From: Tindallia sp. MSAO_Bac2
GTDB lineage: Bacteria > Bacillota > Clostridia > Peptostreptococcales > Tindalliaceae
DNA: 64,000 nt
Reading direction: 5' to 3'
Assembly: GCA_003838145.1 (NCBI GenBank)
Contig: QYZZ01000078.1
Location: forward strand, 25,587-89,586
Shown here: positions 1,956 through 19,200 of the stretch, piece after piece
Position numbering within the stretch: the first letter of the stretch is position 1
How the letters are laid out: the number at the start of each line of letters is the position of its first letter
Program-made: the position numbers and the translations under genes
The notes under the pieces: model-generated
What the model saw: only the letters and a program-made list of their open reading frames with translations
Told to the model about the DNA's origin: nothing
Database searches by the model: none

Positions 1956-1988
1956 TTCACAATTCATAATTCGTAATTCATAATTCAA
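1954..1988. repeat. Heptamer tandem array (AATTCRN) x5
   Basis: AATTCAC AATTCAT AATTCGT AATTCAT AATTCAA. Confidence 0.85.
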
Positions 1989-2007
1989 TGAAGCAGGGTG
2001 GTAAACA

Positions 2008-3834
2008 ATGGCTCAAATAAAAATATTATTTATTCAATACGACAAAACAATCAGACTTCCGGCTGGAACGCTGCTATCGGAAGCATGCCGGCAGGCAGGG
2101 CTTCCGATGGATCTGCTGTGCGGCGGTGGCGGAATCTGCGGAAAATGCCGGGTGCTGCTTCAGCAACAGGATCGTTTAGAATCTGTTCTGGCTTGTCAGA
2201 CCCGGGTAATGGAAGATCTGACCGTGGTGATGCCGGAAGGAAAACTGGAAAAACCGGAAAATCAATTCCTGACGGAAGGGGATGGAAGCTGGGAAAAAGG
2301 AAGAAGACTTTTTGTGCCGGCTCTTCGGAAAAAATCCGTCCACAAAGCAGACATAAAGAGGAGTTTGGCCAGCAGCACTGTTGAAGCCATTGAACAGATC
2401 ATCACCCAGGACGACGTTCCCGTCAGTCATTTTGAGGTGCCCTGGCGACAAATGAAACAGTTGGATGAAATGATTTCCAACCCGGAAACCGAAAAGTTTA
2501 CACTTATTCTGAATCAGGGTAAAGTAATGGGGATGCAGGAAGGGGATACTACCAGTCGCTTTTATGGAGCGGCTGTTGATATTGGCACCACATCTCTGGT
2601 GATGTATTTATACGATCTTTTCAGAGGTGAACAGGTAGCCGTATACTCCGGGAAAAATCCTCAGTGCGCCTGGGGTGCAGACGTCATCAGCCGGATTTTG
2701 CATGCTGAAGTTGATAAAGAGGGAGCCCGGGAACTTCAGTTAGCTGTCACCCGGGGAATCAACAGTATGATCGAAGAAGCGGCTGAATCATTTCCGGCAA
2801 TCAGAACGGATCTGTGGCAGCTGGTGATGGGTGGCAACAGTGCCATGCATCACCTGTTACTTGGATTCAACCCGAAAGAACTGGGTCAGAAGCCTTTTAG
2901 AACTCTAAGCCGGCATCAGATAGAAACCAGCGGAAAAGAGTTGGGGCTCTGTGCTCCTGAGCAAACCCGTGTTGTATTTTTGCCCTTGCTGGGAGGATTT
3001 GTGGGGGCAGACATTACAGCGGTACTGCTTTCCATAAAAGAAGATTATCGGCAGAGACTGATAATTGATTTGGGAACCAATGGGGAAATTGCTCTTGGCA
3101 GCGGAACAAAGTACCGGGTTGCATCCACTGCCTGCGGACCGGCGCTGGAAGGTGCAGGCCTAGCCTGTGGAATGCGGGCGACGGCCGGCGCCATAGAAAG
3201 CGTGGATATGAAAAAGGGTCAGGTGAAGGTGGGGGTTATTGGTGGTGGGAAAGCTTCAGGGATCTGTGGATCCGGAGTGGTGGACCTGGTAGCAGAGCTT
3301 CTTCGGAAGGGAATACTGGAAGCTTCCGGCCGCATGCTCGACAGAGACACCTTTGTTCATCAGAACCCCTACAGTCCGCTGGCGGAACGGCTGGTGACGA
3401 TTGGGGATGCGAATGCTTTCATGATTGCTTTTCCTGAAGAAAGCCATAGGGAGGAAGGTGTTTATCTGACTCAAAAAGACCTTCGGCAAATTCAGATGGC
3501 AAAATCCGCCATATATACCGGATGCTTCATGTTGATGGAAAAAGCCGGAATAAGTAAAGAGGATTTAGATGAAATACTACTGGCAGGTGCTTTTGGAAAT
3601 TATATTCATATAGGGAATGCTCAGCAAATAGGCATGATACCATGCTTTGAAGGAGTCGCAGCCAGGTCTGTTGGCAATGCTGCCGGAACCGGCCTGCAGC
3701 AGGTGCTTCTGGACTGCAGGGAAGAAAAATGCGGAGAAGAGCTGGCGAAACAGGCGCTTCACATCGAATTGGCGGAAGATCCTTCCTTTCAGGAACAGTT
3801 CATGAAGCATCTCGAATTTGGGATGCGGAAGTAA
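2008..3834 (+). CDS. ASKHA-domain [2Fe-2S] protein, RACo/RamA-type corrinoid reductive activator (DUF4445)
   Basis: N-terminal CGGGGICGKC..LAC ferredoxin; VDIGTT, IDLGTNGEI, CGPALEG, GICGSG, LAGAFG, GNAAG motifs. Confidence 0.88.
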   Translation: MAQIKILFIQYDKTIRLPAGTLLSEACRQAGLPMDLLCGGGGICGKCRVLLQQQDRLESVLACQTRVMEDLTVVMPEGKLEKPENQFLTEGDGSWEKGRRLFVPALRKKSVHKADIKRSLASSTVEAIEQIITQDDVPVSHFEVPWRQMKQLDEMISNPETEKFTLILNQGKVMGMQEGDTTSRFYGAAVDIGTTSLVMYLYDLFRGEQVAVYSGKNPQCAWGADVISRILHAEVDKEGARELQLAVTRGINSMIEEAAESFPAIRTDLWQLVMGGNSAMHHLLLGFNPKELGQKPFRTLSRHQIETSGKELGLCAPEQTRVVFLPLLGGFVGADITAVLLSIKEDYRQRLIIDLGTNGEIALGSGTKYRVASTACGPALEGAGLACGMRATAGAIESVDMKKGQVKVGVIGGGKASGICGSGVVDLVAELLRKGILEASGRMLDRDTFVHQNPYSPLAERLVTIGDANAFMIAFPEESHREEGVYLTQKDLRQIQMAKSAIYTGCFMLMEKAGISKEDLDEILLAGAFGNYIHIGNAQQIGMIPCFEGVAARSVGNAAGTGLQQVLLDCREEKCGEELAKQALHIELAEDPSFQEQFMKHLEFGMRK

Positions 3835-3841
3835 ACAAACC

Positions 3842-4216
3842 TTATCGGTTCAGATACTTCCGCATTCTCTCCTCGTCATCCTTTTCCAGACCCCGCTCTC
3901 CGGCCAGGCTCTCCAAATGATGGGTAAATTCATGAAACAGAACGTCTTTTACTTTCTCGTAGAGTTTTGCTCTGGATAACCCACGATAAACCTGTCGGAA
4001 AGACCCATAGTAAATGAAAATTTGCCGACCCATCTGATCCCTTCTATATTGACCCATTACATATAAAGGCTGGCCTGGTTTGGAATGCGTATGTTTTTTG
4101 GAACGCTCCAGCAAAACAACGCCCCCGTGCAATTCCTTAAAAAAATCCTGAGGGATTTCATCGGAAATATCGTTTAACATTTCATGAAATTCGTCAACTG
4201 AGGGAAACTTTGACAT
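3842..4216 (-). CDS. Minimal zincin-like metallopeptidase family protein
   Basis: HEFTH Zn motif in 124-aa ORF; I.IYYGSF motif. Confidence 0.75.
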   Translation of the reverse strand: MSKFPSVDEFHEMLNDISDEIPQDFFKELHGGVVLLERSKKHTHSKPGQPLYVMGQYRRDQMGRQIFIYYGSFRQVYRGLSRAKLYEKVKDVLFHEFTHHLESLAGERGLEKDDEERMRKYLNR

Positions 4217-4391
4217 AATAACCTTCCTTTAATCTTTTTTTTCATTGTATGCTATAAGGAGCACTTGTTTCAAGTGCATATCTCTTTCCAAGTTTATGGT
4301 TCATAAACGCCATATTTATGATATGATGAAAAATGGCTGATTTAAAGAACGGCTAAAGATTTAAGCTTTGCAAGAAGGAGAATACTATATT

Positions 4392-5186
4392 ATGCGAATG
4401 ATTAAAAAACTTGTAGGGAGGTTGATTTTTGGCTTTGCCAAAGTGCTTTCCCATACCTTGGATGGTTTGGTTTATGCCATTGAAACAGGGGTACTGCTGG
4501 CGAAAAGTTTTCTGAAAGGCTGCGCTGTGCTGATTAGCATGGGTGGATGTCTTTTTATACTCCTGATGATCGGACCGTTGGGAACTTTGTTGCTTCGCAA
4601 TCCTGTTGCTCTGCCATTATTGTTTCTGATAATGATTTTTCCGGTTATTGGAGCCATTTCGATTGTATATCTAAAATATATTAAGTACATTACCACGAAG
4701 TATCTTTTTCATCTGGCTGAACACCTGATGGACAGCGAGAAGGTGCAATATCGTTCTTTTGGCGAATTCAAAGAAGACTTCAGAAGAGCCGAAGAAGAAA
4801 GAATCAGACGCGAGCAGGAACGGCGTCGGCAACAGCAACGACAGTGGGAAGAACGTTTTCGGCAGTGGCATCAGCAAAGTGGCGGATGGCAGGGAACGTA
4901 TCAAAGAGGTTACAGTGGCGGGTATGGAAGCCAGGGAGGCTTTGGACCAACTGGCGGAAACCCATACGAAGAGTTTAAGCAAAAATACAGGGAAAGCTGT
5001 GAAATACTGGGTGTTTCCGAAGAGGCTGATCAGTATCGGATAAAGCTGGCATATCGAAAAAAAGCCAAGGAATTTCACCCGGATGTCAATAAAGACCCGC
5101 AGGCTACACAAAAATTTCAAAAGATCAATGAAGCTTACGAATTTCTTAACGAAGACAATATTCAGAGATATCAACGTATGCAGTGA
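4392..5186 (+). CDS. Membrane protein with C-terminal DnaJ (J) domain
   Basis: N-terminal TM helices, Q/R coiled region, G-rich linker, [16 protein letters not shown]-domain; start after AAGGAG. Confidence 0.88.
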
Positions 5187-5266
5187 TTGTAGGCGTATGA
5201 AGAAAACTATACATTGAAAAGAATTTTTGATCTACTTAAAGATGTGATGACGAAAGGGAGTTGGCG

Positions 5267-6460
5267 ATGAAAAGAAGTGTAGGGACCGTTGCGAGAGGCA
5301 TTAGAACACCCATTGTATCTCAGGGAGACAGTATTGAAAAAATTGTTATTGACAGCATTCAAAAGGCTGCAGAGCAGGAAGGTTTCTCTATAAGGGACCG
5401 GGATATCATTGGCATTACCGAATCGGTAGTGGCCCGTGCTCAGGGAAATTATGCCAGTGCCGATGACATAGCCATAGATGTTAAAAGTAAACTTGGAGGA
5501 CAGAAACTGGGTCTTCTTTATCCTATCCTTAGCCGCAACCGATTTGCCGTACTGTTGCGTGGTATTGCAAGAAGCACCAGTCATATTGTTCTTATGCTCA
5601 ACTATCCTTCCGACGAAGTTGGAAATCCACTGGTCAGTATCGATGAACTGGATGCCAGAGGGATTGATCCCTGGACAGATCATCTGACGGAAGAAGATTT
5701 TCGCAATGCTTTTGGCGTAACCGTGCACCCCTTTACCGGCGTTGACTATGTTGAGTATTATCGTTCCATTATTGAGGAAAGCGGCGCTGAATGTACGATT
5801 CTTTTTTCTAACCGGCCTGAAACCGTGCTGGAGCATACGGACCAGGTACTTACCTGTGATGTTCATACCCGCTCCCGAACGAAACGCCAGCTTTTAAATG
5901 CCGGGGCAAAAAAAGTATACTGTCTGGATGAAATTCTGACAGAACCTGTTAACGGTAGCGGATACAATCCGGAATACGGGCTGTTGGGTTCCAATAAGGC
6001 AACGGAAGAGACCATAAAACTTTTTCCCCGGGATTGCCAGATGCTGGCAGAAAGAATCCGGAATAAGCTGAAAGAACAGACGGGAAAAATCGTGGAAGTA
6101 TTGGTTTATGGTGATGGAGCCTTCAAAGATCCTCAGGGGAAAATATGGGAACTGGCAGATCCGGTGGTATCGCCTGGCTACACGGAAGGTCTGGAAGGAA
6201 CACCCAATGAAGTAAAGATTAAGTATCTGGCAGACAATGACTTTGCAGATCTGGAGGGGGAAGCCCTGCAGGATGCAATTTCGCAACACATCAGCAGTAA
6301 AAAAGAGAATCTGGTGGGGGCAATGGAAGCTCAGGGAACGACCCCCAGAAAACTGACGGATTTAATTGGTTCACTCTGCGATCTGACATCCGGAAGCGGA
6401 GATAAAGGCACACCGGTGGTGTATATCCAGGGATATTTTGACAGTTACATCGAAAGATAA
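5267..6460 (+). CDS. CofE-like (F420-0:gamma-glutamyl ligase family) protein
   Basis: GIRTPIVSQGD, ITESVVARAQGN, DLIGSLCDLTSGSGDKGTPVVYIQGY motifs. Confidence 0.8.
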   Translation: MKRSVGTVARGIRTPIVSQGDSIEKIVIDSIQKAAEQEGFSIRDRDIIGITESVVARAQGNYASADDIAIDVKSKLGGQKLGLLYPILSRNRFAVLLRGIARSTSHIVLMLNYPSDEVGNPLVSIDELDARGIDPWTDHLTEEDFRNAFGVTVHPFTGVDYVEYYRSIIEESGAECTILFSNRPETVLEHTDQVLTCDVHTRSRTKRQLLNAGAKKVYCLDEILTEPVNGSGYNPEYGLLGSNKATEETIKLFPRDCQMLAERIRNKLKEQTGKIVEVLVYGDGAFKDPQGKIWELADPVVSPGYTEGLEGTPNEVKIKYLADNDFADLEGEALQDAISQHISSKKENLVGAMEAQGTTPRKLTDLIGSLCDLTSGSGDKGTPVVYIQGYFDSYIER

Positions 6461-6538
6461 ACATAATTCAAAAATATGAAATAATTTGCGCAATTCATGA
6501 AAAGTTTTGCGTAGTATAGAGAAAAGCTAAATTATAAA

Positions 6539-6582
6539 ATGGCCTGATTGCTGGTGTTCAGCAATCAGGCCATATATTTTTT
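6539..6582 (+). terminator. Intrinsic terminator-like hairpin
   Basis: Perfect 15-bp IR ATGGCCTGATTGCTG/CAGCAATCAGGCCAT followed by T run. Confidence 0.7.
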
Positions 6583-6583
6583 T

Positions 6584-6599
6584 TGGCACGGTAATTGCT
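6584..6599 (+). promoter_or_regulatory. sigma54 -24/-12 promoter for TRAP-KamA-amidase operon
   Basis: TGGCAC-GGTAA-TTGCT. Confidence 0.85.
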
Positions 6600-6705
6600 C
6601 TAATAGATAAGTATGTCAATCAGCCGATTAAGAAGTTCGGCGGCACTTTAGTAAGATTTGCTGATTTTTCATAAACTTGATTACAACTTGAAAGGAGCTG
6701 AAATA

Positions 6706-7236
6706 ATGGAGGATAAAAACATGGAAACATCTGTTGGAAAACTGGAAAAGATGATTGATAAATTGGAAATGTCGGCAGTTTATCTCAGCAGTCTCGGAGT
6801 CATTGTGATGATGTTTCTTGTGACGGCAGATGTATCGCGACGATATTTGTTCAATCGACCTATTAGAGGTGGCATGGAGGTAACAGAAATTATTATGGTG
6901 ATCATTGTTTTCCTGGGTATTTCATACGCTCAAAAACAAAAGGCACATGTAGGATGTGATGTCTTTTACGACCGGATACCAAGCGAAAAGCTCAAAGCCA
7001 TTATTGCGCTGATTCAATACGTTATTTCCATAGTGATTTCTTTTGCTATGAGTTACTACACATTCATGAGAACCATCGTGGCCCACAGAACCGGAGTTAG
7101 CAGCATATACATGTACTGGCCGCTGTGGCCCCTGCCATTAATTGCAGCGATAGGCTTTGCGCTGTTAGGGCTCAGACTGATGCTGGATACACGCGATCAG
7201 TTTCTGAAAGTAAAGCAGATGAAAAATCAACTGTAG
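6706..7236 (+). CDS. dctQ: TRAP transporter small permease
   Basis: 4 TM; ADVSRRYLFNRPI, HVGCDVF DctQ motifs. Confidence 0.9.
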   Translation: MEDKNMETSVGKLEKMIDKLEMSAVYLSSLGVIVMMFLVTADVSRRYLFNRPIRGGMEVTEIIMVIIVFLGISYAQKQKAHVGCDVFYDRIPSEKLKAIIALIQYVISIVISFAMSYYTFMRTIVAHRTGVSSIYMYWPLWPLPLIAAIGFALLGLRLMLDTRDQFLKVKQMKNQL

Positions 7237-7245
7237 GAAGAAAGG

Positions 7246-8556
7246 GTGAAAGTTGTGGAACATATAGGCTTTATAGGAATAGCGGTGTTGTTGTTATTAG
7301 TTTTTTCAGGAATGAGAGTTGCCTATGCTGTGATGCTGGTTGGTGGTCTTGGTCTGTTTCTTGTAAGAGGATTCTCCGGTGGCGGCGTTGGTGAATTTTT
7401 AGGATATATTCCTACTTCGCTGGCAGGCACCTACACATACAGTGTCATTCCACTCTTTATTCTTATGGGCTATTTTGTTTATTATTCGGGATTAACAGAT
7501 GAATTATTCGAGTGTGCCAGTGCTTGGGTTCGCCATATTCCAGGAGGCCTTCCTATTGCAACAGCACTATCCTGTGGCGTGTTTGCAGCAACCTCCGGAG
7601 CAAGTGTTGCATCATCGGCTATTTTTGCGAAAATTGCCATCCCTAAAATGCTTGATGCAAACGTTGATAAACGGCTTGCGGCTGGAATTGTTGCAACAGG
7701 TGGTACCATAGCGGCACTGATTCCCCCCAGTGCCATTATGGTTATCTTTGCCATACTCACAGAGCAATCTGTAGCTTTTATGCTGATGGCAGGTGTGTTG
7801 CCAGGTATTCTGACTATATTATTTTTGGTTCTCATTATTTATATACGAGCCAAGTTAGACCCAGCTTTGGCTCCTACCCTTCCAGCAGCCAGCTGGAAAG
7901 AACGTTTTCAAACAACGAAAAAAATCTTCGCCATTCCAGCGATTATTGTCATTATTATTGGAGGTATTTATACAGGAATGTTTTCACCCACTGAAGCAGG
8001 AGGGATGGGAGCCTTCGTGGCGTTAATAATGGTTATAGCCAAAAGAAAATTAACGATGAAGGTGTTGATGGAATCACTGGTAGAAACAGTTAAAACGACA
8101 AGCTTTGTGTTCTTTCTGATGATTGCGATAACCATATTTCTCAGATTCTTAGTATTAACAGGTACGGTAGGAGCAATTACAGGATTTGCACTTGACCTAC
8201 CTATTTCTCCCATTGCGGTGCTTACAGTTATTTTACTGATTCATGTTTTACTTGGGATGTTTATGGACGCCATAAGCATGATGATGTTGACGGTTCCAAT
8301 TTTTTTTCCGGTAGTAGTTGCGCTGGGATACAATCCTATCTGGTTGGGTATTCTTGTAGTAAAAATGGGTGAGCTTAGCTTGATTACACCACCTATTGGG
8401 CTCAACTGTTATGTGGTTGCCGGTTCGACGGACAGAGTCTCTGTTGATGATGTTTTCAGGGGAATCCTTCCCTTTACGCTTGCAGATGTTGCTGTGGTTA
8501 TACTGGTTATAATATTCCCGGCATTAGCATTATACCTGCCAAGTATGATGGGTTAA
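7246..8556 (+). CDS. dctM: TRAP transporter large permease
   Basis: IPLFILMG, ALIPPSAIMVIF, FSPTEAG, LITPPIGLN motifs. Confidence 0.93.
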   Translation: MKVVEHIGFIGIAVLLLLVFSGMRVAYAVMLVGGLGLFLVRGFSGGGVGEFLGYIPTSLAGTYTYSVIPLFILMGYFVYYSGLTDELFECASAWVRHIPGGLPIATALSCGVFAATSGASVASSAIFAKIAIPKMLDANVDKRLAAGIVATGGTIAALIPPSAIMVIFAILTEQSVAFMLMAGVLPGILTILFLVLIIYIRAKLDPALAPTLPAASWKERFQTTKKIFAIPAIIVIIIGGIYTGMFSPTEAGGMGAFVALIMVIAKRKLTMKVLMESLVETVKTTSFVFFLMIAITIFLRFLVLTGTVGAITGFALDLPISPIAVLTVILLIHVLLGMFMDAISMMMLTVPIFFPVVVALGYNPIWLGILVVKMGELSLITPPIGLNCYVVAGSTDRVSVDDVFRGILPFTLADVAVVILVIIFPALALYLPSMMG

Positions 8557-8659
8557 GCACTTTATTTAAAGAAAGAGGTGATTTGTTACAAAAAAACTTC
8601 GTTGACAGAAAAATGGAAAAAAAGTTTTTAAAAAGAGCAATTAAAAAAGGAGGATTAGC

Positions 8660-9739
8660 ATGTATAAAAATCGATGGCTAACAATTCTATTGGCAATCAT
8701 GATGGTGCTTACACTTGTTGGATGTGGAGGTGGAAATGGAAACGATCAGGTATCGGGTAACGGTGGAGAAGATAATCCTGAACCAGCAGATGAAATTATT
8801 CACTGGGATGTGTCTATCTATGGAGCGAGCAGAGCCTGGACTAAACCTGTTGAGGAGTGGGCTGATACAATGCATGAAAGAACCGATGGACGCTGGGTTA
8901 TCGAGTTGCACTATGGTGAAGTGCTGGCTCCGGCAGCAGAAAACCTGGAAGGTGCATCTTCAAGACTCTTTGAAGTTGGAGCTGTATGTCCGTTCTATTC
9001 GCCAGGAACATTGCCGCTAAATCAGGTAATGGATTTGCCTTTTCTACCACCTATGAGCAATGAAGATATTGTCACATTCCAAAAGGCAATCTGGGATCAC
9101 CCGGACGTAATTGCAGAATTTGAAAATCATAATGTAGTGCCACTTATACCAACGGGTTTGCCTCAATTGGAAGCCATGTCAAAATCTCCTATCAGAACGG
9201 CAGAAGACTGGGATGGCATTCGAATGGCTGGTATGAGTGCGGAATTAGGTTATGTATTAGAAGAATTTGGCGGAGTGCCGAATCCGATGCCAGCACCAGA
9301 CGTTTATATGTCGCTGGACAGAGGAGTTTTGGATACTGTTATTATGCATAACACGTATGCCTTTGGCTCCTATTCTTTTCATGAAGTTACAGACTACTAC
9401 GTAACGGATCTCGCTCTGGGAACAGTTGCTGCCTTTTATGTAGCGAATAAAGACGCTTGGGAAGAGCTGCCACAAGAATTCCGGGATATTCATATGGAAT
9501 TCTACGACGATATGGAAGCTATCGGAGCGAAGTATTATGCAGAAGCAGATGAAGAGTTCGAACCATTATTTAAGGAAAACATGGAACACATTGCTTTTCC
9601 TGCAGAAGAGAGAGAAAAACTGGAAGCAGAAGCGGAAAAAATATGGCAGGAATGGGCGGAAAGATGGGAAGACAGAGGCGATAGTCATGGCTTACTTGAG
9701 CAAATGATTGAATTAAGCGATCAGTTGGATTCTCAATAA
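8660..9739 (+). CDS. dctP: TRAP substrate-binding lipoprotein
   Basis: Lipobox LVGC; VYMSLDRGVLD DctP motif; follows dctQM. Confidence 0.9.
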   Translation: MYKNRWLTILLAIMMVLTLVGCGGGNGNDQVSGNGGEDNPEPADEIIHWDVSIYGASRAWTKPVEEWADTMHERTDGRWVIELHYGEVLAPAAENLEGASSRLFEVGAVCPFYSPGTLPLNQVMDLPFLPPMSNEDIVTFQKAIWDHPDVIAEFENHNVVPLIPTGLPQLEAMSKSPIRTAEDWDGIRMAGMSAELGYVLEEFGGVPNPMPAPDVYMSLDRGVLDTVIMHNTYAFGSYSFHEVTDYYVTDLALGTVAAFYVANKDAWEELPQEFRDIHMEFYDDMEAIGAKYYAEADEEFEPLFKENMEHIAFPAEEREKLEAEAEKIWQEWAERWEDRGDSHGLLEQMIELSDQLDSQ

Positions 9740-9760
9740 ATAAAATGAGGAGGGCTGTAG

Positions 9761-10906
9761 ATGCCGGACTTTGAATCATTAAACTGGAAGGAAGAGCTTA
9801 AAAACAACATTAAAACCATAGATGAGCTTAAAAATTTCATAGACTTGACGGAAACAGAAGAATCTGATCTCCGCAAAGTAGTGAAGCAGCACCCGATGAA
9901 TATTCCTCGTTACTACATGAATCTGGCTGATCCGGCTGATCCTGAAGATCCAATCAGAAAGCTTTCTGTACCAAGCATTGATGAGTTGTTTGAAAAAAGT
10001 CTGACGGGAAACACAACAGATGATCCATACGGTGATGATAAACACGACAAAGGAAATGGAGTTCTCCATAAATATCCGTACACAGCATTGGTAGTAGCAA
10101 CAGAGTATTGTTCCATGTATTGCAGGCATTGTTTTAGAAAACGCATGGTAGGATTGAGTACCAATCAGACGGTCAAAAATTTTAAAAATGCTGCAGAATA
10201 CATTGCTGATCATTCAGAAATTAAAAACGTTGTGATTTCAGGTGGAGATCCATTTCTACTTGGGACAGAAGCTCTGAGAGAAATGCTGAATGCTTTAAAA
10301 AATATTGATCATCTAAATTATGTGCGAATTGGTTCCAGAGCACCAGTTGTATACCCTCTCCGCTTTATGGATGATGAATTAATGGAAGTGCTGAAGGAAT
10401 TCAATGAATATAAAGCTTTATACGTTCCGACACACTTTAATACCGCTAAAGAAATAACCCCATTGGCGACGAAGGCTGTTGGACGACTTCGGAAAGCAGG
10501 CTTAACAGTCAATAATCAGGCAGTGTTTTTGAAAGGTGTAAATGACTCTGTTGAAAAATTGGTGGAGTTGATGGATGGATTGGTTAGAATAGGAGTGAAC
10601 CCATATTATTTATACCAATGCATGCCGGTATCAAAAGTAAGAAGACAGTTTCAGGTTCCTCTAAAAGAAGGAACAGAGATTGTCAGCGAAGCTAAAAGAA
10701 GATTAGATGGGTATGCGAAACGCTTTAAGTTTATTATGGGAGATGATAGTGGAAAAATCGAAATATGTGGTAGTTCAGGAAATTATTTAGTTATGAGTCA
10801 AATACACTCCAGACCAGAAGAACCGGAACAGGCATCAAAGATTATGATCAAAGAACTGACAGATGATGCCGGCTGGCTGGACGACCTGGGGCAGGATCTG
10901 CTGTAG
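9761..10906 (+). CDS. KamA-family radical SAM aminomutase-like enzyme (substrate unknown)
   Basis: HKYP, CSMYCRHCFRKR, SGGDP, RIGSRAPVVYP, THFN, NQAVFLKGVND, PYYLYQC. Confidence 0.9.
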   Translation: MPDFESLNWKEELKNNIKTIDELKNFIDLTETEESDLRKVVKQHPMNIPRYYMNLADPADPEDPIRKLSVPSIDELFEKSLTGNTTDDPYGDDKHDKGNGVLHKYPYTALVVATEYCSMYCRHCFRKRMVGLSTNQTVKNFKNAAEYIADHSEIKNVVISGGDPFLLGTEALREMLNALKNIDHLNYVRIGSRAPVVYPLRFMDDELMEVLKEFNEYKALYVPTHFNTAKEITPLATKAVGRLRKAGLTVNNQAVFLKGVNDSVEKLVELMDGLVRIGVNPYYLYQCMPVSKVRRQFQVPLKEGTEIVSEAKRRLDGYAKRFKFIMGDDSGKIEICGSSGNYLVMSQIHSRPEEPEQASKIMIKELTDDAGWLDDLGQDLL

Positions 10907-10989
10907 TATAATTGAATGACAAAATATGAGAAGCGGTGGACTACTAAAGTCTGCCGTTTCCCTGCTATTAGAAAACGAGGTGACATGAT

Positions 10990-11820
10990 ATGAGGCTTGC
11001 TCTTGGACAGACAAATCCTATTATTGGTGAGGTGAAAAGCAATTTAAACAAAATAAAAAACGTAGTTAAGGAATCGTCAGAAAAAGGTGCTAATCTAATT
11101 CAGTTTACAGAGTGTGCAGTAACCGGATACTGCTATGAATCAAGAAAGGAAGTCCTCCATTATGTTAAAGAAGGGTTGTCAGAGAAAATCATAAGTGAAA
11201 TCAGCGGTATTTGCGGTTCATCGATGGTGATGCTTGGAACTTTAGAAGTGATTAATGGCACCATCAGGAATTCAATTTTGCTGATTTCTTCGAATGGACT
11301 TATTGCAAAATACTATAAGTGCCACTTGCCCGTTCTGGGTGCTGATCGTTTTGTTACACCCGGTGAAGGACTATGTGAAATAATCGAAACTCCCTTTGGT
11401 AAGATAGGGATTCTGGTGTGCTTTGAGCTTCGATTCCCTGAGGTGGCAAGAATTTTGGCTCTGAAAGGAGCAGACATTATTTGCAACCCGACAAATGTTC
11501 CTGTGGGAGGCGAGGCGGCAGTCGACTATCTTGGTCGTGCCAGGGCACTGGAAAACAGAGTATATGTGTCGTCCTGTAATAGAACAGGAATTGAAAGAAA
11601 TACTCAGTTTATTGGAAAGAGCCAGGTAGTGGATCCTTCCGGTAATTTTATTACAGCAACTGACGACAGGGAAGTAATACTGTATGCAGACATAAACCTT
11701 CAACTGGCACAAAATAAAACGATAGTCATTAAAGCTGGAGAATATGAACTTCCACTTTTTAAGCAAAGAAAAACCCGTATGTACTCGGCGATAACAGAAG
11801 CACAGTATAATGGCAGATAA
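10990..11820 (+). CDS. Carbon-nitrogen hydrolase (nitrilase/amidase family)
   Basis: E-K-C triad: FTECAVTGY, YYKCHL, VCFELRFPE; ARALEN, NRTG. Confidence 0.9.
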   Translation: MRLALGQTNPIIGEVKSNLNKIKNVVKESSEKGANLIQFTECAVTGYCYESRKEVLHYVKEGLSEKIISEISGICGSSMVMLGTLEVINGTIRNSILLISSNGLIAKYYKCHLPVLGADRFVTPGEGLCEIIETPFGKIGILVCFELRFPEVARILALKGADIICNPTNVPVGGEAAVDYLGRARALENRVYVSSCNRTGIERNTQFIGKSQVVDPSGNFITATDDREVILYADINLQLAQNKTIVIKAGEYELPLFKQRKTRMYSAITEAQYNGR

Positions 11821-11925
11821 ATGGTTGAATGTTTCTGGAAATTCTGATAAAAAGAATATATTACAATTAAAACATTTGATTTTTATGAATAAGCAACTTC
11901 TAAGTTGTGATTTGGAGGCAAAAGT

Positions 11926-13278
11926 ATGGCGGAGAAGAAAAAACTGCCCCAAAAAAGCGAGATAAACAAATCTTACAGATTATTAATGGCTGGCACAATA
12001 ACAATTATTGCAGTTCCGGTCATTGTGATTATCTTTTTATTGTTCGAAGTGTTTAATGCCCAACAGGACCTTTCAAAACAGAAAAAACAGCAAATGGAAA
12101 GCATAAGTAACCATGTAATCATGCAGGTTTCACAAAATCATCAAACCGGCACTGTTTATATAGACTGGGAAGAACTCATACAGAATTTGCCTGTTGCCAA
12201 CAACGAAGCTGGCTACCATTGGCTTGTTTTTGATGAAAGAAACGTTAATATATTCAGATCGTCCTGTCTTCCGCAAGAATTGCTAAATGCTGCTGAATTA
12301 ATTAATTTGGAAGGACCTGAAGGGCTTCGGGAGTGGAAACCGGCGGGAGAATGGATTGTTGTTGAAGAACAGGTCGATAGGAATGGTGGCCCCGCTTATT
12401 ATTTGATCTTAGCATCGCAGGAAAGTCTATTCAGTCAATATGTAACAAGAATACAGGTAGTTTCGGTTGTTGGGTTGATTCTGATTGGAATTATTGCTTC
12501 GAAGATCGTATTTAAACTGGCAGATGAAATGATATCGAAATATGCAGACATATCAGAGCGTTACAAAAAAGTTGACTATGAAGATCGATTCAAAGAACAC
12601 CTGATTTCGCAGAAGATGGTTACGATGGAAAATTTTGCGGCTGGAATTGCTCACGAGATTGGTAATCCTTTATCTTCCATTTTAAGTACGATACAAATTC
12701 TTACTGGTTATGAGTTGGATGAAGATGAGACCCGCAATCAATATAATCAGTTAATGAAGGACTCCAGAAAAATTGACAGGATATTGCATGAAATACTGGA
12801 TTATCGAAGGTATAATAATGAAGCAAATATTAAAGTGAACCTTAATGACATTATTAGTGACTCTGTTGGAAGCATAGAAGCTGAATGTGCAACAAAAAAC
12901 ATTGAGTTTGCATTAGAATTATCACCTAATATTCCTGAATTGATTCTAAATGAACCTCAGCTTAGAATTGTATTTTTAAATATTATCCGAAATGCCTGTC
13001 AGGCTATAAATGAACAGGGCTACGTTTATATCAGAACAATAGTTTACGATAATGTGGTGAGGGTTCGAATAGCAGATTCTGGATCGGGAATAAAACCAGA
13101 ACATATGGATAACATATTTGACCCTTTTTTCACAACCAAAGATGTTGGGAAAGGCATGGGAATGGGTTTATATGCTTCGTTTCAAATAATTCATGCTCAT
13201 AAAGGATCCATTTCTGCTGAAAGTAATTACGGAGAAGGTACAATCTTTACTGTCGACTTTCCGTTTGTAGAGGAGTGA
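11926..13278 (+). CDS. Membrane sensor histidine kinase (NtrB/AtoS-like)
   Basis: Two TM; AHEIGNPL H-box; N, G1, FDPFFTTK, GMGMGL boxes. Confidence 0.92.
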   Translation: MAEKKKLPQKSEINKSYRLLMAGTITIIAVPVIVIIFLLFEVFNAQQDLSKQKKQQMESISNHVIMQVSQNHQTGTVYIDWEELIQNLPVANNEAGYHWLVFDERNVNIFRSSCLPQELLNAAELINLEGPEGLREWKPAGEWIVVEEQVDRNGGPAYYLILASQESLFSQYVTRIQVVSVVGLILIGIIASKIVFKLADEMISKYADISERYKKVDYEDRFKEHLISQKMVTMENFAAGIAHEIGNPLSSILSTIQILTGYELDEDETRNQYNQLMKDSRKIDRILHEILDYRRYNNEANIKVNLNDIISDSVGSIEAECATKNIEFALELSPNIPELILNEPQLRIVFLNIIRNACQAINEQGYVYIRTIVYDNVVRVRIADSGSGIKPEHMDNIFDPFFTTKDVGKGMGMGLYASFQIIHAHKGSISAESNYGEGTIFTVDFPFVEE

Positions 13279-14678
13279 TATCGGTGCTTAACAGGATATT
13301 GGTTGTGGAAGATGAAACAAACTTACGCAATAACCTTGTATTCATATTCCAAAAAGAAGGTCTTCAGGTAAGTGCAGCAGAAGATGGCTACACTGCAAAA
13401 GAGATGATTTTATCGAATGAATATGAAATAATACTTCTGGATATAAAACTGCCCGGGTTAAGTGGTTTGGAATTGCTTGAACTTAAGTCCCGGATAAAGT
13501 ATGAATGCAAATTTGTTGTCATGACGGCATATGGCAGCATAGAGTCAGCTGTAGAAGCTATCAAACTGGGAGCGGAAGAGTACATCACCAAACCATTTCG
13601 CAATGACTATATGATCAGGGCTATAAAACGTCTTCTTCACATTCGGAAGCTGGAAAGTGAGAACATTAATTTCAAGACTGAAATAAAAAAACAATATGAA
13701 TTAGAAAAAAGCATTATTGGCTCCAGTGCTGCAATGCAAAAGGTATTTGATCAGGTGAGGATGATTACTGAACTGGATACAAATGTAATGGTTTCAGGCG
13801 AAAGTGGAACGGGAAAAGAATTAATTGCAAAAGCAATTCACTCTTACAGCAATCGTTTTTCGAAACCATTTATTCCGGTAAATTGCGCAGCTATCCCTAA
13901 AGATCTTTTTGAGTCTGAATTTTTTGGTCACGTAAAAGGTTCTTTTACGGGTGCAGATATTGATAAAAACGGTTATTTCTTGGATGCAAATGGAGGAACC
14001 CTTTTTCTCGACGAAATAAGCGAAATGCCGATGCAAATGCAGGCAAAACTCCTTCGAGTCCTGCAGGAAAATAAAGTTAGACGAGTTGGTGACTCAAAAC
14101 AACATTCTTTTGACACCAGAATTTTATCCTCATCGAATAAAGATTTAAAAGTGATGATTGGAGAGGGGACTTTTCGTGAAGACTTATACTACAGGATTAA
14201 AGTAGTAGAAATTAAGCTTCCTCCACTACGGGAACGTGAAGGCGACTTGACGCTGCTTATTGACTTTTTTGTGAATAAATATAACCGCCTGTTTAATCGA
14301 AACATAAAAAAAGTGAGCGAGGAAGCAATGATTTTGTTAAGGAGCCACAGCTGGCCCGGCAATATAAGGGAATTGGAGCATACGATACAATCAGCCATTG
14401 CTTTATGCAGATCAGATGAACTGAGGAAAGAGGACTTTATCGGTCTGGACCAACAGGACGATGGTGTGAAGGTAATAATACCATCGCATCGTACAAATTT
14501 AAAAGAATTACTACAACAAACCAAAGCAACTGTTGAGAAAGAAATGATCAGAAGAGCTTTGGGAAATAGTCGGGGTAATCAGGTTCAGGCTGCAAAAGAG
14601 CTGGGTATGAGCCATCGCAACTTATTATACAAACTGAAAGATTATGGTATTAAAAGTAAGGACGATAAGTATGATTAA
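13275..14678 (+). CDS. sigma54-dependent response regulator (NtrC/AtoC-like)
   Basis: Receiver, GESGTGKE, GSFTGA, LFLDEI, WPGNIRELE, Fis-type HTH. Confidence 0.95.
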   Translation: MISVLNRILVVEDETNLRNNLVFIFQKEGLQVSAAEDGYTAKEMILSNEYEIILLDIKLPGLSGLELLELKSRIKYECKFVVMTAYGSIESAVEAIKLGAEEYITKPFRNDYMIRAIKRLLHIRKLESENINFKTEIKKQYELEKSIIGSSAAMQKVFDQVRMITELDTNVMVSGESGTGKELIAKAIHSYSNRFSKPFIPVNCAAIPKDLFESEFFGHVKGSFTGADIDKNGYFLDANGGTLFLDEISEMPMQMQAKLLRVLQENKVRRVGDSKQHSFDTRILSSSNKDLKVMIGEGTFREDLYYRIKVVEIKLPPLREREGDLTLLIDFFVNKYNRLFNRNIKKVSEEAMILLRSHSWPGNIRELEHTIQSAIALCRSDELRKEDFIGLDQQDDGVKVIIPSHRTNLKELLQQTKATVEKEMIRRALGNSRGNQVQAAKELGMSHRNLLYKLKDYGIKSKDDKYD

Positions 14679-16185
14679 TAAGTATATTGTTATTGGTTTT
14701 ATATCGTTTTATATTGCTATAACGCTTCTGGTGGGAATGATGGCTTCGGTTAAGCGACAAAACATAGAAATGTATTTTCTGGCCGGAAGACGTTTGGGTC
14801 CAGTGATGCTGGCATTCTCTTTTTCGGCTACTGCAATGAGCGGGCTGCTTTTTTTCGGTTTTTCCGGTATGTTCTTTGAAAGTGGACTACAGAATCTGTG
14901 GTTACTAATTTCCAGTGGTATTGTTGGGATTCTACTTTGTTATTATTTGGTCAGCAAAAAGATTCGTCTTTACTCGGAGCGTACTGGAGCATTAACGGTT
15001 ATAGAATTGCTGAAAAATCGGTATGGGGATAGTGAGCGATACCTGGCTAGAATAACAGCCATGATTATTATTGTTTCGACTGTGTTATATGTGAGTGGAC
15101 AATTGATTGCGATGGCAAAATTAATGGATATTTTTATTGGTTTGCCTTATGAGACGTCCATTATCATTTTTGCATCAGTTATTGTAACCTATACGGTAAT
15201 GGGGGGATTTAAAGCGGTATGCTGGACAGATGTGTTTCAGGGAATATCTATGGTGCTGGCCTGTTTGCTGGTGGGTAGCGTTGTGTGGCGCATTAATTCC
15301 GGATTTTCTCAGCTTTGGTTGAACATGACGATTATTAATCAGTCTGACTCGCAGTTTTATATTTCTCCGTTTGCGACCCCTTCGAACATTTTACTGGGAG
15401 TCACGCTATTCCTGGGTGATGGAATTATGAGCTGGATCGGACAGCCTACCTTAATGACCCGATATATGTCTTTAAGAAAAATAGGTGACTTTGGTCAGGC
15501 GAAAAAACTGAGCGTTTTATTCCAAATGATCCTGTTTGCCGGGGTGGTTTTAGCTTCTTTTCACATGAGGACACAATACTTTGAAGCGAGTATGCTGCCG
15601 ATGGGAGAAGATATGGAAACGGTGTTCATACAGTTTTTTCTGACCTATATGAATCCACTTTTGGGAGGGGTTGTACTGGGTGGCATTATAGCGGCTATTA
15701 TATCAACAGCAGACTCGCTGATTATCTTAGCCAGCTCAATATGGGCGAATGATATCTATGGCAGCAAAAATCAACATGCTACACCAGAAAAACTAATATG
15801 GGTCAGCAAGATAACAACATTACTAATTGGACTAATTGTTGTTTTGATATCCTTCAACATTCACACAGTATTGCTTGTGGCCTGGACGGGTTGGACGATG
15901 CTGGGGATTGTTGGTGTTCCTTTAATTGTTGGGATGTACTGGAAAAGGGCAACGCTTCGAGGTGCGATTTGTGCGGAAATTGCCGGGGTTGCTACACTTA
16001 TTCTTTGGGTAGCTTTTGATCTGACAGGTAAGCTAAGTATTTTTTATGCTTTTCCGGCAGGGGTTGTTTCTTACTTGAGCATCTTCCTTGTAAGCTGGTT
16101 CGATAAAAGTCCCCCGGATTATATCCAACAGGAAATAGCTGACTTAAACCGGAATTATGAATATGAAAGCAAAGCGCGGATTTAA
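14671..16185 (+). CDS. Sodium:solute symporter (PutP-like)
   Basis: YFLAGRRLG, SATAMSG, GGFKAVCWTDVFQG, AAIISTADS motifs. Confidence 0.9.
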   Translation: MINKYIVIGFISFYIAITLLVGMMASVKRQNIEMYFLAGRRLGPVMLAFSFSATAMSGLLFFGFSGMFFESGLQNLWLLISSGIVGILLCYYLVSKKIRLYSERTGALTVIELLKNRYGDSERYLARITAMIIIVSTVLYVSGQLIAMAKLMDIFIGLPYETSIIIFASVIVTYTVMGGFKAVCWTDVFQGISMVLACLLVGSVVWRINSGFSQLWLNMTIINQSDSQFYISPFATPSNILLGVTLFLGDGIMSWIGQPTLMTRYMSLRKIGDFGQAKKLSVLFQMILFAGVVLASFHMRTQYFEASMLPMGEDMETVFIQFFLTYMNPLLGGVVLGGIIAAIISTADSLIILASSIWANDIYGSKNQHATPEKLIWVSKITTLLIGLIVVLISFNIHTVLLVAWTGWTMLGIVGVPLIVGMYWKRATLRGAICAEIAGVATLILWVAFDLTGKLSIFYAFPAGVVSYLSIFLVSWFDKSPPDYIQQEIADLNRNYEYESKARI

Positions 16186-16195
16186 AAGCTGTCCT

Positions 16196-17359
16196 CTACT
16201 TTTCGAGGACAGCTTTCCTGATTTCATGCCCTTCATCAAGACTTGTAGTGCGAACAATAATTGCATGATCCCCCATGGCAGCTGCAAAGGCTTGTGGTAT
16301 GAGCCCGCTGAAGACCACGGCCTCCGGGTATAAAGCAGCGATTTCTTCTGCTGATAACGCATAGTGATAATGATTTTTCCGACCGATATAAAAACAGTTG
16401 TATTTGCGGTCTGCTTCCGGGGAAAACGTCCCCCTGACCATCAGTTGAGCATAAAGATCGTAAACATTTATATCGTTGGCATAATTGATCATGTCCACAA
16501 TCATCCCGCCTGGGGGCCGGGCATTGACTTCCAAAGCGATAATACGGTTATCGGAAGTTACGAAGAATTCGATGTGGAAAAACCGCTGATTCAATCTGAA
16601 AGCTTCCACTGCTTTTCTGCCTGCCTCCACAATTCCGGGAGAAAGTTCTTTTGGAATATAGATGAACATATCCAAATTTTCATTGACGGATTCCATGACA
16701 TCGGTGCCGTACACCAGTCCTGATTCCAGCAAAATATTTCCTTGCTGGTCCACCATTCCGTCGTAGGAGTGAATGGTTCCGGTGACGTATTTTTCAAGAA
16801 AATAATCCACTGGAAGTTTGTGCGATAAAAAATTCTCCAGGTCCTGCTGATTATTCAGCTTATATGTGGCGTATGCGCCGACTCCATTATCCGGTTTCGC
16901 AATAACCGGATAATCATGTTTTTTGATAAATTCATACGCCTTTGCCTGGTCCCCGTCCTTCAAGACGGTGCCTGGAACTGTTTCGATACCGGCTTGCTGA
17001 AACACAGGCTTCATGCCGGATTTATACTTTAAGGGGTACATTTCTTCTGTCTTTAAGCCAGGCACATTAAAATCCGTTCTCAGTTTTGCATCTGTTTCCA
17101 ACCAGAATTCATTGTTCGATTCAATGCCATGGATTTTACCGTACCGATGGGTGAAGTACCCGCATGCCCGGAGCAATTGCTGATAATCTGTCATATCGCC
17201 CACCTGATAATATTCTGTCAGGGAAGCTTTAACGTCAGCCGCCAAACTGTCGTAAGCATCTTCGCCAATGCCCAGGGTATTGACGCCCAGGTCTTTGATA
17301 GCGGACCAGAAACGGTGGTAATGTGGTGGAAAATGAGGCGACAGGATAACGAAATTCAT
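16196..17359 (-). CDS. ATP-grasp domain protein
   Basis: IESNNEFWL, PVIAKPDNGVGA, FFHIEFF, EVNARPPGG. Confidence 0.85.
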   Translation of the reverse strand: MNFVILSPHFPPHYHRFWSAIKDLGVNTLGIGEDAYDSLAADVKASLTEYYQVGDMTDYQQLLRACGYFTHRYGKIHGIESNNEFWLETDAKLRTDFNVPGLKTEEMYPLKYKSGMKPVFQQAGIETVPGTVLKDGDQAKAYEFIKKHDYPVIAKPDNGVGAYATYKLNNQQDLENFLSHKLPVDYFLEKYVTGTIHSYDGMVDQQGNILLESGLVYGTDVMESVNENLDMFIYIPKELSPGIVEAGRKAVEAFRLNQRFFHIEFFVTSDNRIIALEVNARPPGGMIVDMINYANDINVYDLYAQLMVRGTFSPEADRKYNCFYIGRKNHYHYALSAEEIAALYPEAVVFSGLIPQAFAAAMGDHAIIVRTTSLDEGHEIRKAVLEK

Positions 17360-17487
17360 GGATTCACCAACTTTCCTTTAAACTAGGGAGAGGCTGTGGA
17401 GCCTCTTGCCGTTAACTCCATCAATACCCAATAAGTATCAGAATAATCAGAAAACCCATGCGGTTCATTCAGGAGGAAGGAACAAAA

Positions 17488-18876
17488 TTATTTTTCCTGG
17501 ATCATCCTGGAAAGCAGTTCTCTTTTTTGCTTAACGCCATACTTTCTATAAATATTTTTCAAGTGAGTTTTCAGCGTATTTTCACTGATGTACAATTTTT
17601 CCGCGATCACCTTGTTAGTGAAACCTTCCAGTAGCAGGGAAATAATTTCTTTTTCCCTGGTTGTCAGGTCCTGTCCCGGAAGCAGAAGGGATTCAGTTAA
17701 GACACTGGGATCATTGTCTAATGCTTTTTCTGTGTTTAAACGACTCTTGATGCGTGGAATCAAAGGGAGTAGCAAAAAAAGTATAGATGCTGAAAGAAAT
17801 GCAGCCATTACCCGGTACATTTCGCTGGAAAGCAAAAGTTGATGCCCAAACCATTCGCCGGCAATAATGCTAAAAAGTTTTCCTCCTAAGGCAATTCCGA
17901 AAAAAAGGTAAGGAGAACCATAAACAGAGGCGAGGGAGCCGATGAGCGTCCAGCTGAAAAGGTCCAGCAAAGCGTAGGAAGATTCCAGTAAAAAGGCTGT
18001 AATCAGCAAAGAGATAATGTTCTTTCCGGCAATGGAAAAAAGAATAAAGGAAAGCCCCAACAGTGATATTCCAAGATAAACAGGTAACTCCCACCGCAGT
18101 TTATATCCCCACAAACCAAGGAAAACTAACACGAGAATATACGGAATATAAGTATAGTCAAAGTAAAGGAAAAGCCTTCCGGACTCAGCCAATGATGGTC
18201 GGATAATTGTGTAGACAAGCCCGGCGCTGAAATAAAGGCCTGCCAAAAGGAAAGTCAGATAGGACAAAACAGGCACCGGCGCACCACTCTCAGTCAAATC
18301 TTCCGGAGACACAGTTTCCTCCGGAGCAGATTCCTTTATGGAACGCAGCAAAATCAGCAGCACAAGGAATAAAGGCAGTATTGAAACAGGCAGCACTGCA
18401 GCATCCTTTAACACTGCTGTTGCGTTTTTGGTCAAAACATATACCAGGTTGGCCAGAATAATGACAGAGGCCATAATCTTCAGCCGCTCCCGGGTTTGAA
18501 TCTTAAAGGAGAAAGGCACAGACCATCCCAGGATGAACAGGGCGGAACAGACGCCCAACGCAGCAAAAACAGGAGGCCATAATGTCGCTGGTGAAAACAG
18601 GATAAAAAGATGCAATATGATAGTCGTTATAAGGGAAGATATCATGAGCTTTTGCCAGGACACAGCTTTAGGCAAAACAAAAGCAGCTACAAAAAAAGCG
18701 AGAGCATGAAAAAAACCGAAAATTAACGGCAGAGAAAAGCCATAAAACTCATCTAGGGGAGCTGTGCTTCTTAACACAGGACCATGAAAAGGAAAAGAGA
18801 GCATCCAGCCAAAGTAAACCCCTTTGATCAGAATAATCCTTAGATGCTGGATGGGACTATGAAATAGTTTGAACAT
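17488..18876 (-). CDS. Multi-TM membrane protein with C-terminal LuxR HTH
   Basis: About 12 hydrophobic segments then LTTREKEIISLLLEGFTNKVIAEKLYISENTLKTHLKNIYRK. Confidence 0.88.
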   Translation of the reverse strand: MFKLFHSPIQHLRIILIKGVYFGWMLSFPFHGPVLRSTAPLDEFYGFSLPLIFGFFHALAFFVAAFVLPKAVSWQKLMISSLITTIILHLFILFSPATLWPPVFAALGVCSALFILGWSVPFSFKIQTRERLKIMASVIILANLVYVLTKNATAVLKDAAVLPVSILPLFLVLLILLRSIKESAPEETVSPEDLTESGAPVPVLSYLTFLLAGLYFSAGLVYTIIRPSLAESGRLFLYFDYTYIPYILVLVFLGLWGYKLRWELPVYLGISLLGLSFILFSIAGKNIISLLITAFLLESSYALLDLFSWTLIGSLASVYGSPYLFFGIALGGKLFSIIAGEWFGHQLLLSSEMYRVMAAFLSASILFLLLPLIPRIKSRLNTEKALDNDPSVLTESLLLPGQDLTTREKEIISLLLEGFTNKVIAEKLYISENTLKTHLKNIYRKYGVKQKRELLSRMIQEK

Positions 18877-19012
18877 AAAAACACTTCCTATAAGACGTGA
18901 CTTAAGACCTATTGATTTCATTATAGCATAGACAAAGCGATTTTGAAAATTCAGAAGGTAAAAACATGAAAGAAACTGACGGATGAGTATAGAATACTTG
19001 AAAAAACCATCC

Positions 19013-19032
19013 CCTCACCTTTTAGGGTGAGG
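19013..19032. promoter_or_regulatory. Palindrome, candidate LuxR-type operator
   Basis: CCTCACC-TTTTAG-GGTGAGG between divergent genes. Confidence 0.35.
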
Positions 19033-19200
19033 AGAAAGGTAAGGTGCTTTTGTAATAAAGTATTATTCAGCGACGTTTTGTCCAAAAGGGTGATAACAAT
19101 AATGGTTTGAGCGTGATAAGTTGGGTCTAGGATATAACAAAAAGCAACAAGGAGAATTGGTTTATCAGAAACTATTTGAACCCGGAAAGGATGATGTGGA

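Follow-up and report, generated by a model that had tools for sequence, protein, structure and literature searches.

A clade of KamA-family radical enzymes with a Met/Gly pocket: a probable new aminomutase specificity, tentatively for a glutamine-like amide

To our knowledge, only four specificities are known among the aminomutases that combine radical S-adenosylmethionine (SAM) chemistry with pyridoxal 5'-phosphate (PLP): lysine in two stereochemical versions, glutamate and arginine. In lysine 2,3-aminomutase (LAM) of Clostridium subterminale, Asp293 and Asp330 are reported (Lepore 2005; Ruzicka & Frey 2007) to hold the epsilon-ammonium group of lysine. Glutamate 2,3-aminomutase (Eam) carries a Lys/Asn pair in the same two columns, and engineered LAMs have acquired activity on a neutral amino acid through D->G or D->H changes at the second aspartate (PMC9850924). 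Here we analyse an open reading frame (ORF), positions 9761-10906, in a stretch of 64,000 nucleotides (the window) from Tindallia sp. MSAO_Bac2, contig QYZZ01000078.1. Its product has Met and Gly in place of the two aspartates, and it belongs to a widespread clade, here called QCMP, with the signature YLYQCMP and GHDIGK. The ORF probably encodes an active 2,3-aminomutase with a new specificity, neither for lysine nor for glutamate of the Eam type. As its substrate we tentatively favour a glutamate-length amino acid with an uncharged distal amide, the candidate reaction being L-glutamine to and from beta-glutamine (3-aminoglutaramate).

The ORF is real and its frame is intact. It starts with ATG, 6 nt downstream of the ribosome-binding site GAGGAGGG; this site is strong, and the operon is tight around the gene. 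The product matches Pfam Radical_SAM and passes the NCBIfam model of the KamA subfamily, TIGR00238 (281.5 bits against a cut-off of 199.2). It fails every more specific model: TIGR03820 for lysine 2,3-aminomutase (272.8 against 525.4), TIGR04468 for arginine 2,3-aminomutase (263.7 against 600), TIGR04368 for glutamate 2,3-aminomutase (247.2 against 650), the AblA-like-2 model (238 against 396) and TIGR03821 for EpmB (216.7 against 369.3). The only solved relative is the C. subterminale LAM, 2A5H (HMMER E 1.8e-69). An AlphaFold2 model built from a 70-sequence alignment reached a pLDDT of 85.9 and a pTM of 0.88, with pLDDT below 50 only at residues 79-97, a clade-specific insertion, and at residues 129-132. 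When this model was compared with the PDB by Foldseek, 2A5H again came first (TM 0.77, E 1e-29, 34% identity), far above other radical-SAM barrels, and the predicted fold is LAM-like.

To place the pocket residues, we aligned the protein by HMMER against 2A5H and by MAFFT with the LAM and the Eam of the same genome as controls. Two KamA-family genes besides the ORF are present in the window's assembly (2.48 Mb, 97% complete). One exceeds the LAM cut-off (TIGR03820, 627>525) and is taken to be the enzyme of lysine fermentation because it lies between kdd and kamB/kamC (L115, contig C124 of genome G000, 9000-18000); the other exceeds the Eam cut-off (TIGR04368, 691>650; L116, contig C6, 19000-28000). 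The host is an amino-acid-fermenting anaerobe with three KamA paralogs and an operon of kdd, kamA, kamB and kamC. In the joint MAFFT alignment the LAM control reads YQC-D and VV-D-APGGGGK, and the Eam control reads FHA-K and IL-N-APKGQGK, so that the Lys/Asn code given in an earlier note on this DNA reappears in the genome's own enzyme. The ORF reads YQC-M and IM-G-DD--SGK, with Met288 and Gly327 in the columns that are Asp/Asp in LAM and Lys/Asn in Eam. For the arginine enzyme, no true member of TIGR04468 scored above cut-off in 301 genomes of the phylum or among the controls.

The catalytic core is conserved around this altered pocket. Direct translation yields the three motifs that the earlier note had quoted, CSMYCRHC, YLYQCMP and FIMGDDSGK. 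The first, extended to CSMYCRHCFR (10109-10138), aligns with C125, C129, C132 and R134 of LAM, so that R126, the equivalent of the Arg134 that binds the alpha-carboxylate, is retained. The PLP lysine K332 (LAM K337) is invariant in all alignments, and the SGGD, NQ and PYY motifs are present. Judged by this full set of cluster, SAM and PLP motifs, the product is a KamA-family radical-SAM/PLP enzyme, and its chemistry is very probably a 2,3-amino shift of the LAM type. It departs from LAM at the inter-subunit Zn site, which is absent because the Cys268 column is Ser and no Cys follows residue 336; the earlier note had likewise read the C-terminal Zn cysteines as missing and the CxxxCxxC and SGK lysine as kept.

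The loss of both lysine-binding aspartates, claimed by eye in the earlier note, is borne out by these alignments, with one qualification. Ahead of the PLP lysine the loop lacks two residues relative to LAM and Eam, and the placement of the indel is therefore not unique. HMMER and two MAFFT alignments keep Gly at D330 and one MAFFT run shifted the gap; the note's own proviso, that a proper alignment might restore an Asp (for example from the DD in GDDSGK), thus retains some weight. In the AlphaFold2 model K332 opens a strand directly after a tight D329-S330 turn. This ambiguity and the invariance of Asp329 allow for an anionic pocket, in which Asp329 (with Asp328 in the window's copy) would replace Asp330 from the shortened loop and bind a cationic substrate, for instance ornithine, 2,4-diaminobutyrate or a differently posed lysine. 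We consider this very improbable, since Gly falls at D330 in most of the alignments, Met has replaced Asp293, and no diamino-acid genes other than ablAB recur nearby.

We then asked how general the Met/Gly pair is. A protein search with the ORF gave over 100 matches at 64-69% identity. The clade as a whole spans 59-70% identity; at the 50% identity level used to cluster one library, a single full-length representative stands for all of it, and the next relatives lie at ~40%. Its members number in the thousands and stay about 65-70% identical across phyla, which implies strong selection on the reaction. Median pairwise identity is 68% over 175 non-redundant members, and the Met288/Gly327 signature is invariant across about 175. 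From species-representative genomes we took 80 loci carrying clade members: YLYQCMP (or QTMP) occurs in 80/80, and GHDIGK in all except the window's copy. Together with the failed equivalog cut-offs and the presence of separate LAM and Eam genes in the same genome, this invariance upholds the earlier note's proposal of a probable new specificity that is neither Lys nor Glu of the Eam type.

The window's copy is a somewhat divergent member. It shares 140 positions that are at least 97% conserved among the 175 members, which come from many phyla, and it differs at six others of that class (L53M, G80S, M82T, H228T, R292K and H328D). H228 is conserved throughout the KamA family. The two lost histidines, H228 and H328, together with the Thr/Ser found throughout the clade at the equivalent of LAM R116 and a gene cassette seen only in the window's genome, would fit an enzyme that carries out a different radical reaction on its PLP-bound substrate, or a copy that is inactive, perhaps a decaying gene acquired horizontally. 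Such an outcome seems improbable for a gene with an intact frame, a strong ribosome-binding site and a tight operon, whose product retains the 140 clade-invariant positions and all cluster, SAM and PLP motifs.

The hosts of the clade are anaerobes from many phyla, nearly all marine or saline and mostly metagenome-assembled genomes. They include Desulfuromonadales, Desulfobulbales, Desulfobacteraceae, Sedimenticola, Thiodiazotropha, Neptuniibacter and Campylobacterota, as well as Nitrospinota, Fibrobacterales, Kiritimatiellae, Planctomycetota and Denitrovibrio. The clade has spread horizontally: in the tree the phyla are freely intermixed, and the window's protein lies near the base of the clade. 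Among 122 representatives of the KamA family, 63 carry Asp/Asp and about 30 form an Arg-type sister assemblage (QCRP / MSHxxGK); rarer signatures are Lys/Asn (2), Glu/Ala (2) and a few Met types. The QCRP sister groups occur in only 3/200 genomes, where their neighbours, YheC/D ATP-grasp proteins and a WYL regulator, give no hint of function. Clade proteins are named in their sources 'KamA family radical SAM protein' or, wrongly, 'lysine 2,3-aminomutase'; NCBIfam covers them only by its subfamily model, and our literature search found no study of the clade.

The gene context points, in a minority of loci, to glutamine. We clustered all ORFs of the 80 loci. The glutamine importer GlnHPQ adjoins the gene in 8/80 loci (GlnH 331>303, GlnQ 401>379). 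The two are divergent in the Desulfuromonadales loci and run in the same direction in those of Desulfobacteraceae; among PDB entries the importer matches the E. coli glutamine-binding protein best (E 2.6e-79). GlnA or a GlnA-like ligase is found in 5 loci, among them L005, with a true GlnA (483>429), and L035, and a glutaminase in 1. That last locus, L082, has the operon order glnHPQ, QCMP gene, rpiR, a second KamA paralog, and glutaminase A (481>368). Its GlnH (L082:7449-8201, +) carries G68A, T70F and G119A near the site for the alpha-amino and carboxylate groups, changes that may suit a ligand with a shifted amino group. This GlnH retains most ligand contacts of the E. coli protein (D10, F13, F50, A67, R75, K115, H156 and D157).

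The second paralog of L082 represents a further orphan type, here called type B, of 358 aa, with YCE.. / ATNIGK, Glu in the Asp293 column, and scores that reach no NCBIfam equivalog cut-off. In 17/80 loci it is at most 4.3 kb away from the QCMP gene, with both gene orders represented, for example L035:13003-14076 (+), L027:2269-3357 (+) and L082:12182-13258 (+), with 14 other loci. The gene downstream of type B is usually a GlnA-like ligase, or a glutaminase. Genomes bearing type B have no canonical Eam, and their other paralogs are all Asp/Asp. Two Desulfuromonadales genomes, G250 and G251 (the hosts of L035 and L055), have five KamA paralogs each: three Asp/Asp, type B and QCMP, with no Lys/Asn Eam.

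Methionine is roughly isosteric with the lysine of Eam and the arginine of the QCRP sister groups at position 288, but it is uncharged. At the second position the clade has Gly-His, the same residues whose introduction into engineered LAMs gave activity on a neutral amino acid (PMC9850924). With this Met/Gly-His pocket, the glutamine importer, the glutaminase, the GlnA-like ligases and an amidase beside the ORF in the window, an amide-ended substrate of glutamate length is the most economical reading, and it is on this basis that we tentatively favour glutamine. The earlier note had expected a neutral or bulky substrate. Its bulky half is disfavoured, as Met is larger than Asp and the context is that of a glutamine/glutamate-type amide; its neutral half is not established, given D329, R294 and the K94/H95/K97 loop.

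Several observations weigh against the glutamine assignment. In most genomes the gene is solitary among unrelated neighbours or accompanied by just a regulator; MarR occurs in 13 loci and GntR, RpiR or AsnC in others, and in annotated loci of the Desulfobulbales type the neighbours are housekeeping genes, with no ectoine genes among them. Most loci are thus uninformative, and the glutamine context comes from a minority, mainly Desulfuromonadales and Desulfobacteraceae, whose related genomes are not independent. The glutamine enzyme might instead be type B, with its Glu/...Asn signature. The transporter and amidase context of the window is unique among the loci examined, and H228T and H328D may give the window's copy a specificity or activity of its own. 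In the pocket, the clade-invariant Asp329 sits two residues past the Gly aligned with D330 and Arg294 is also clade-invariant, for which reason an uncharged pocket is not proven; these residues and the K94/H95/K97 loop could render it charged. Finally, beta-glutamine is not known as a solute outside methanogens.

The same neighbourhoods would fit equally well a second, non-orthologous glutamate 2,3-aminomutase, interconverting L-glutamate and beta-glutamate, with which bacteria of marine sediments would make or consume beta-glutamate. The charge that Eam carries at 288 would have moved to Arg292/Arg294 or to K94/H95/K97, and the clade does have an invariant basic patch, SRVRHH, just after 288, the position at which the sister groups have Arg. 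In the QCMP-bearing genomes tested we found no canonical Eam except in the window's own genome, and beta-glutamate is abundant in marine microbes (PMC8269262). We nevertheless regard a glutamate enzyme as unlikely: a canonical Eam already exists in the window's genome, the invariant Asp329 and the His328->Asp change in the window's copy disfavour a carboxylate, and an amide is suggested by the amidase and the glutaminase among the partners.

Other neighbours point towards osmolytes. The QCMP gene is co-operonic with true ablA-ablB in 6-7 loci (L045, L058, L072, L038, L049 and L060), and OpuA-type or BCCT betaine transporters stand beside it in single loci. With the marine or saline hosts and the MarR loci, this suggests a link to osmolytes, which we count in favour of the glutamine reading. 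The ablAB operons raise the idea that the enzyme interconverts N-epsilon-acetyl-lysine and N-epsilon-acetyl-beta-lysine, or acts on another acylated diamino acid, as a third gene of ablAB clusters, with the window's hydrolase as the deacylase. Loss of both amine-binding aspartates would suit an acetamide, and the window's host ferments lysine. Genome-wide, however, AblB occurs in only 3/10 QCMP hosts and type B in 1/10, so the QCMP enzyme is independent of both. The gammaproteobacterial hosts have EpmB-like genes but no further lysine 2,3-aminomutase, the change from Asp to Met shrinks the pocket instead of lengthening it, and the GlnHPQ and glutaminase contexts would go unexplained; an acetyl-lysine enzyme is therefore highly improbable.

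It is also rather unlikely that the glutamine context is incidental and the substrate another uncharged molecule, such as L-alanine (giving beta-alanine), methionine, or an amide of the asparagine or citrulline type. Support for it comes from engineered alanine 2,3-aminomutases, which carry D->G or D->H at the second aspartate (PMC9850924) where the clade has G-H. PanD (PF02261) is absent from 3/5 QCMP genomes tested, and the solute-binding protein of the window has 4NAP/4PGN as its best PDB relatives, a weak match (E 4e-17) to binders of aromatic acids. The window's genome and G004 do have PanD, however, genes for beta-alanine, pantothenate or methionine do not recur in the neighbourhoods, and Met288, as judged from sequence, enlarges the pocket wall without closing it. 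A role in supplying beta-alanine for CoA was considered and rejected, as the PanD pattern (two hosts with, three without) gives no consistent complementarity. The survey also recorded epmA or efp in 0/80 neighbourhoods. A search for riboswitches as a clue to the ligand gave no Rfam match ahead of the gene in any of 7 loci, and none within window positions 1-20000.

In the window the aminomutase gene is part of a cassette that runs from a TRAP transporter to a sodium:solute symporter (Table 1), with no strong terminator between dctQ and the symporter gene.

Table 1. Features of the aminomutase gene and its cassette (window coordinates)
Feature	Position	Strand	Evidence or remark
Intrinsic terminator, 16-bp stem and T-run, ending the upstream unit	6539..6573	+	Sequence scan
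Exact sigma54 -24/-12 element TGGCACGGTAATTGCT, about 107 nt upstream of dctQ	6584..6599	+	One of only two zero-mismatch sites in 64 kb
TRAP small membrane subunit DctQ	6706..7236	+	Pfam PF04290, 83 bits
TRAP large membrane subunit DctM	7246..8556	+	Pfam PF06808, 269 bits
TRAP solute-binding lipoprotein DctP	8660..9739	+	Profile search
KamA-family aminomutase ORF	9761..10906	+	381 aa; TIGR00238 281.5 bits; 2A5H E 1.8e-69; Foldseek TM 0.77
Clade-specific 19-residue insertion, residues 79-97, consensus GxMGETTxDPYGDDKHDKGNG, invariant K94, H95, K97	9995..10051	+	Clade alignment
CSMYCRHC, CxxxCxxC [4Fe-4S]/SAM motif (C117, C121, C124), then R126 (= LAM R134)	10109..10132	+	Translation, alignment
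YLYQCMP	10607..10627	+	Direct translation
Met288 codon, LAM Asp293 / Eam Lys column	10622..10624	+	HMMER against 2A5H, MAFFT
FIMGDDSGK	10730..10756	+	Direct translation
G327-D328-D329-S330-G331-K332; Gly at LAM Asp330 column; K332 = PLP lysine; clade consensus GHDIGK	10739..10756	+	Alignments
Carbon-nitrogen hydrolase (nitrilase-superfamily amidase)	10990..11820	+	PF00795, 149 bits; below all equivalog cut-offs; best PDB 1J31/3IVZ
Membrane sensor histidine kinase with periplasmic domain	11926..13278	+	Profile search
NtrC-type sigma54 activator (REC-AAA+-Fis HTH)	13275..14678	+	Profile search
Sodium:solute symporter, PutP-like, below cut-off	14644..16185	+	Profile search

The other exact element of the sigma54 type (TGGCAC-N5-TTGCW) in the window lies at 1170-1185 (-). 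Upstream of the cassette, beyond the terminator, is a 399-aa homolog of CofE, the F420-0:gamma-glutamyl ligase (5261-6460, +); its match to a 218-position Pfam profile covers all 399 aa, which implies a large insertion. At the other end, convergent with the symporter gene, an ATP-grasp ligase (16196-17359, -) gives weak matches to D-Ala-D-Ala ligase and carbamoyl-phosphate-synthase-like proteins.

Orthologs of the aminomutase, DctP or hydrolase were absent from all 40 genomes examined of the window's genus, family and order (0/40). We therefore take the cassette to be accessory and probably a horizontal acquisition; vertical inheritance was rejected on the same distribution. DctP itself is of a rare type: among 5.8 billion proteins just two homologs turned up, both at about 45% identity. 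The closer of these (45% identity; L131:203-11219) belongs to an operon with an amidase-signature amidase, dctQM, an ADP-forming acyl-CoA synthetase and four beta-oxidation enzymes, which looks like a route for the amide of a dicarboxylic acid. The nearest relatives of the hydrolase (47-54% identity) adjoin an ABC importer of the amide/branched-chain type, a GS-family protein and an M55 peptidase. These two contexts together suggest that the molecule imported by the TRAP system is a carboxylate bearing an amide.

Taking family, cofactor motifs, pocket substitutions, distribution and neighbourhoods as the observations to be accommodated, we infer the following substrate, direction and order of steps for the glutamine reading. 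The TRAP system would import an amide-bearing carboxylate under sigma54/NtrC control. SAM bound to the [4Fe-4S] cluster would yield a 5'-deoxyadenosyl radical, which would take a hydrogen from the PLP-aldimine of the amino acid, and the amino group of the imported amide would move between C2 and C3. The carbon-nitrogen hydrolase would then remove the amide nitrogen, leaving glutamate, or beta-glutamate for the genome's separate Eam. The window would thus hold a catabolic version of the pathway, with inducible uptake, amino shift and deamidation, and in the Desulfobacterota clusters beta-amino solutes would be made from the glutamate/glutamine pool. beta-Glutamine is documented as a solute of methanogens (PMC1224877). 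On a reading that we hold to be less likely than not, the whole clade would be a natural glutamine 2,3-aminomutase, an activity so far undescribed, and with type B, the GlnA-like ligases and glutaminase it would form a previously unseen beta-glutamate/beta-glutamine network in sediments.

Solutes of the beta-glutamate type are very abundant in marine archaea and reportedly also in sediments. The QCMP enzyme may make or consume a beta-amino acid that has gone unrecognised. If its substrate is glutamine or another neutral amino acid, it would add an activity with an EC number of its own, offer a catalyst for producing beta-amino acids, and matter for where beta-glutamate-type solutes come from and what becomes of them. 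The glutamine reading, if true, would let marine anaerobes pass between L-glutamine and beta-glutamine in a single step. The natural pocket, with Asp->Gly/His and Asp->Met, also offers a ready template for engineering aminomutases of the alanine type.

How do these enzymes compare with the systems already described? With LAM (KamA of C. subterminale, 2A5H; AblA, TIGR03820) they share the fold, the CxxxCxxC motif, the carboxylate arginine, the PLP lysine and the SGGD, NQ and PYY motifs, and presumably also the radical/PLP 1,2-amino shift. They differ in Asp293->Met, Asp330->Gly, a PLP loop shorter by two residues, the missing Zn site (C268->S and no C-terminal CxCxxC), the 19-residue insertion and a different C-terminal beta domain, which ends W..DD. 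Eam (TIGR04368; IdnL4 of incednine, PMC11284099) is a KamA enzyme retargeted at the same two positions, and the gene context of the QCMP clade is, in a minority of loci, centred on glutamate/glutamine; Eam, however, has Lys/Asn instead of Met/Gly and an N-terminal extension. The engineered alanine 2,3-aminomutases (Cargill, US7309597; PMC9850924) have the second aspartate changed to Gly or His, as in the natural G327-H328 of the clade, but they are LAM mutants that retain Asp293 and the long loop.

Among the shorter relatives, EpmB (YjeK) and arginine 2,3-aminomutase (BlsG type, TIGR04468) resemble the QCMP enzyme in lacking the C-terminal Zn domain of LAM, whereas the EF-P/EpmA and blasticidin contexts are not found in the QCMP clade, and the EpmB-type paralogs in QCMP hosts retain Asp/Asp. 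Type B (YCE / ATNIGK) is set apart by its Glu at 288 and is tied to the QCMP gene by physical linkage. The QCRP / MSHxxGK sister groups (35-41% identity) resemble the QCMP clade in their short loop, HKY motif and C-terminal domain, and differ from it by the Arg at 288.

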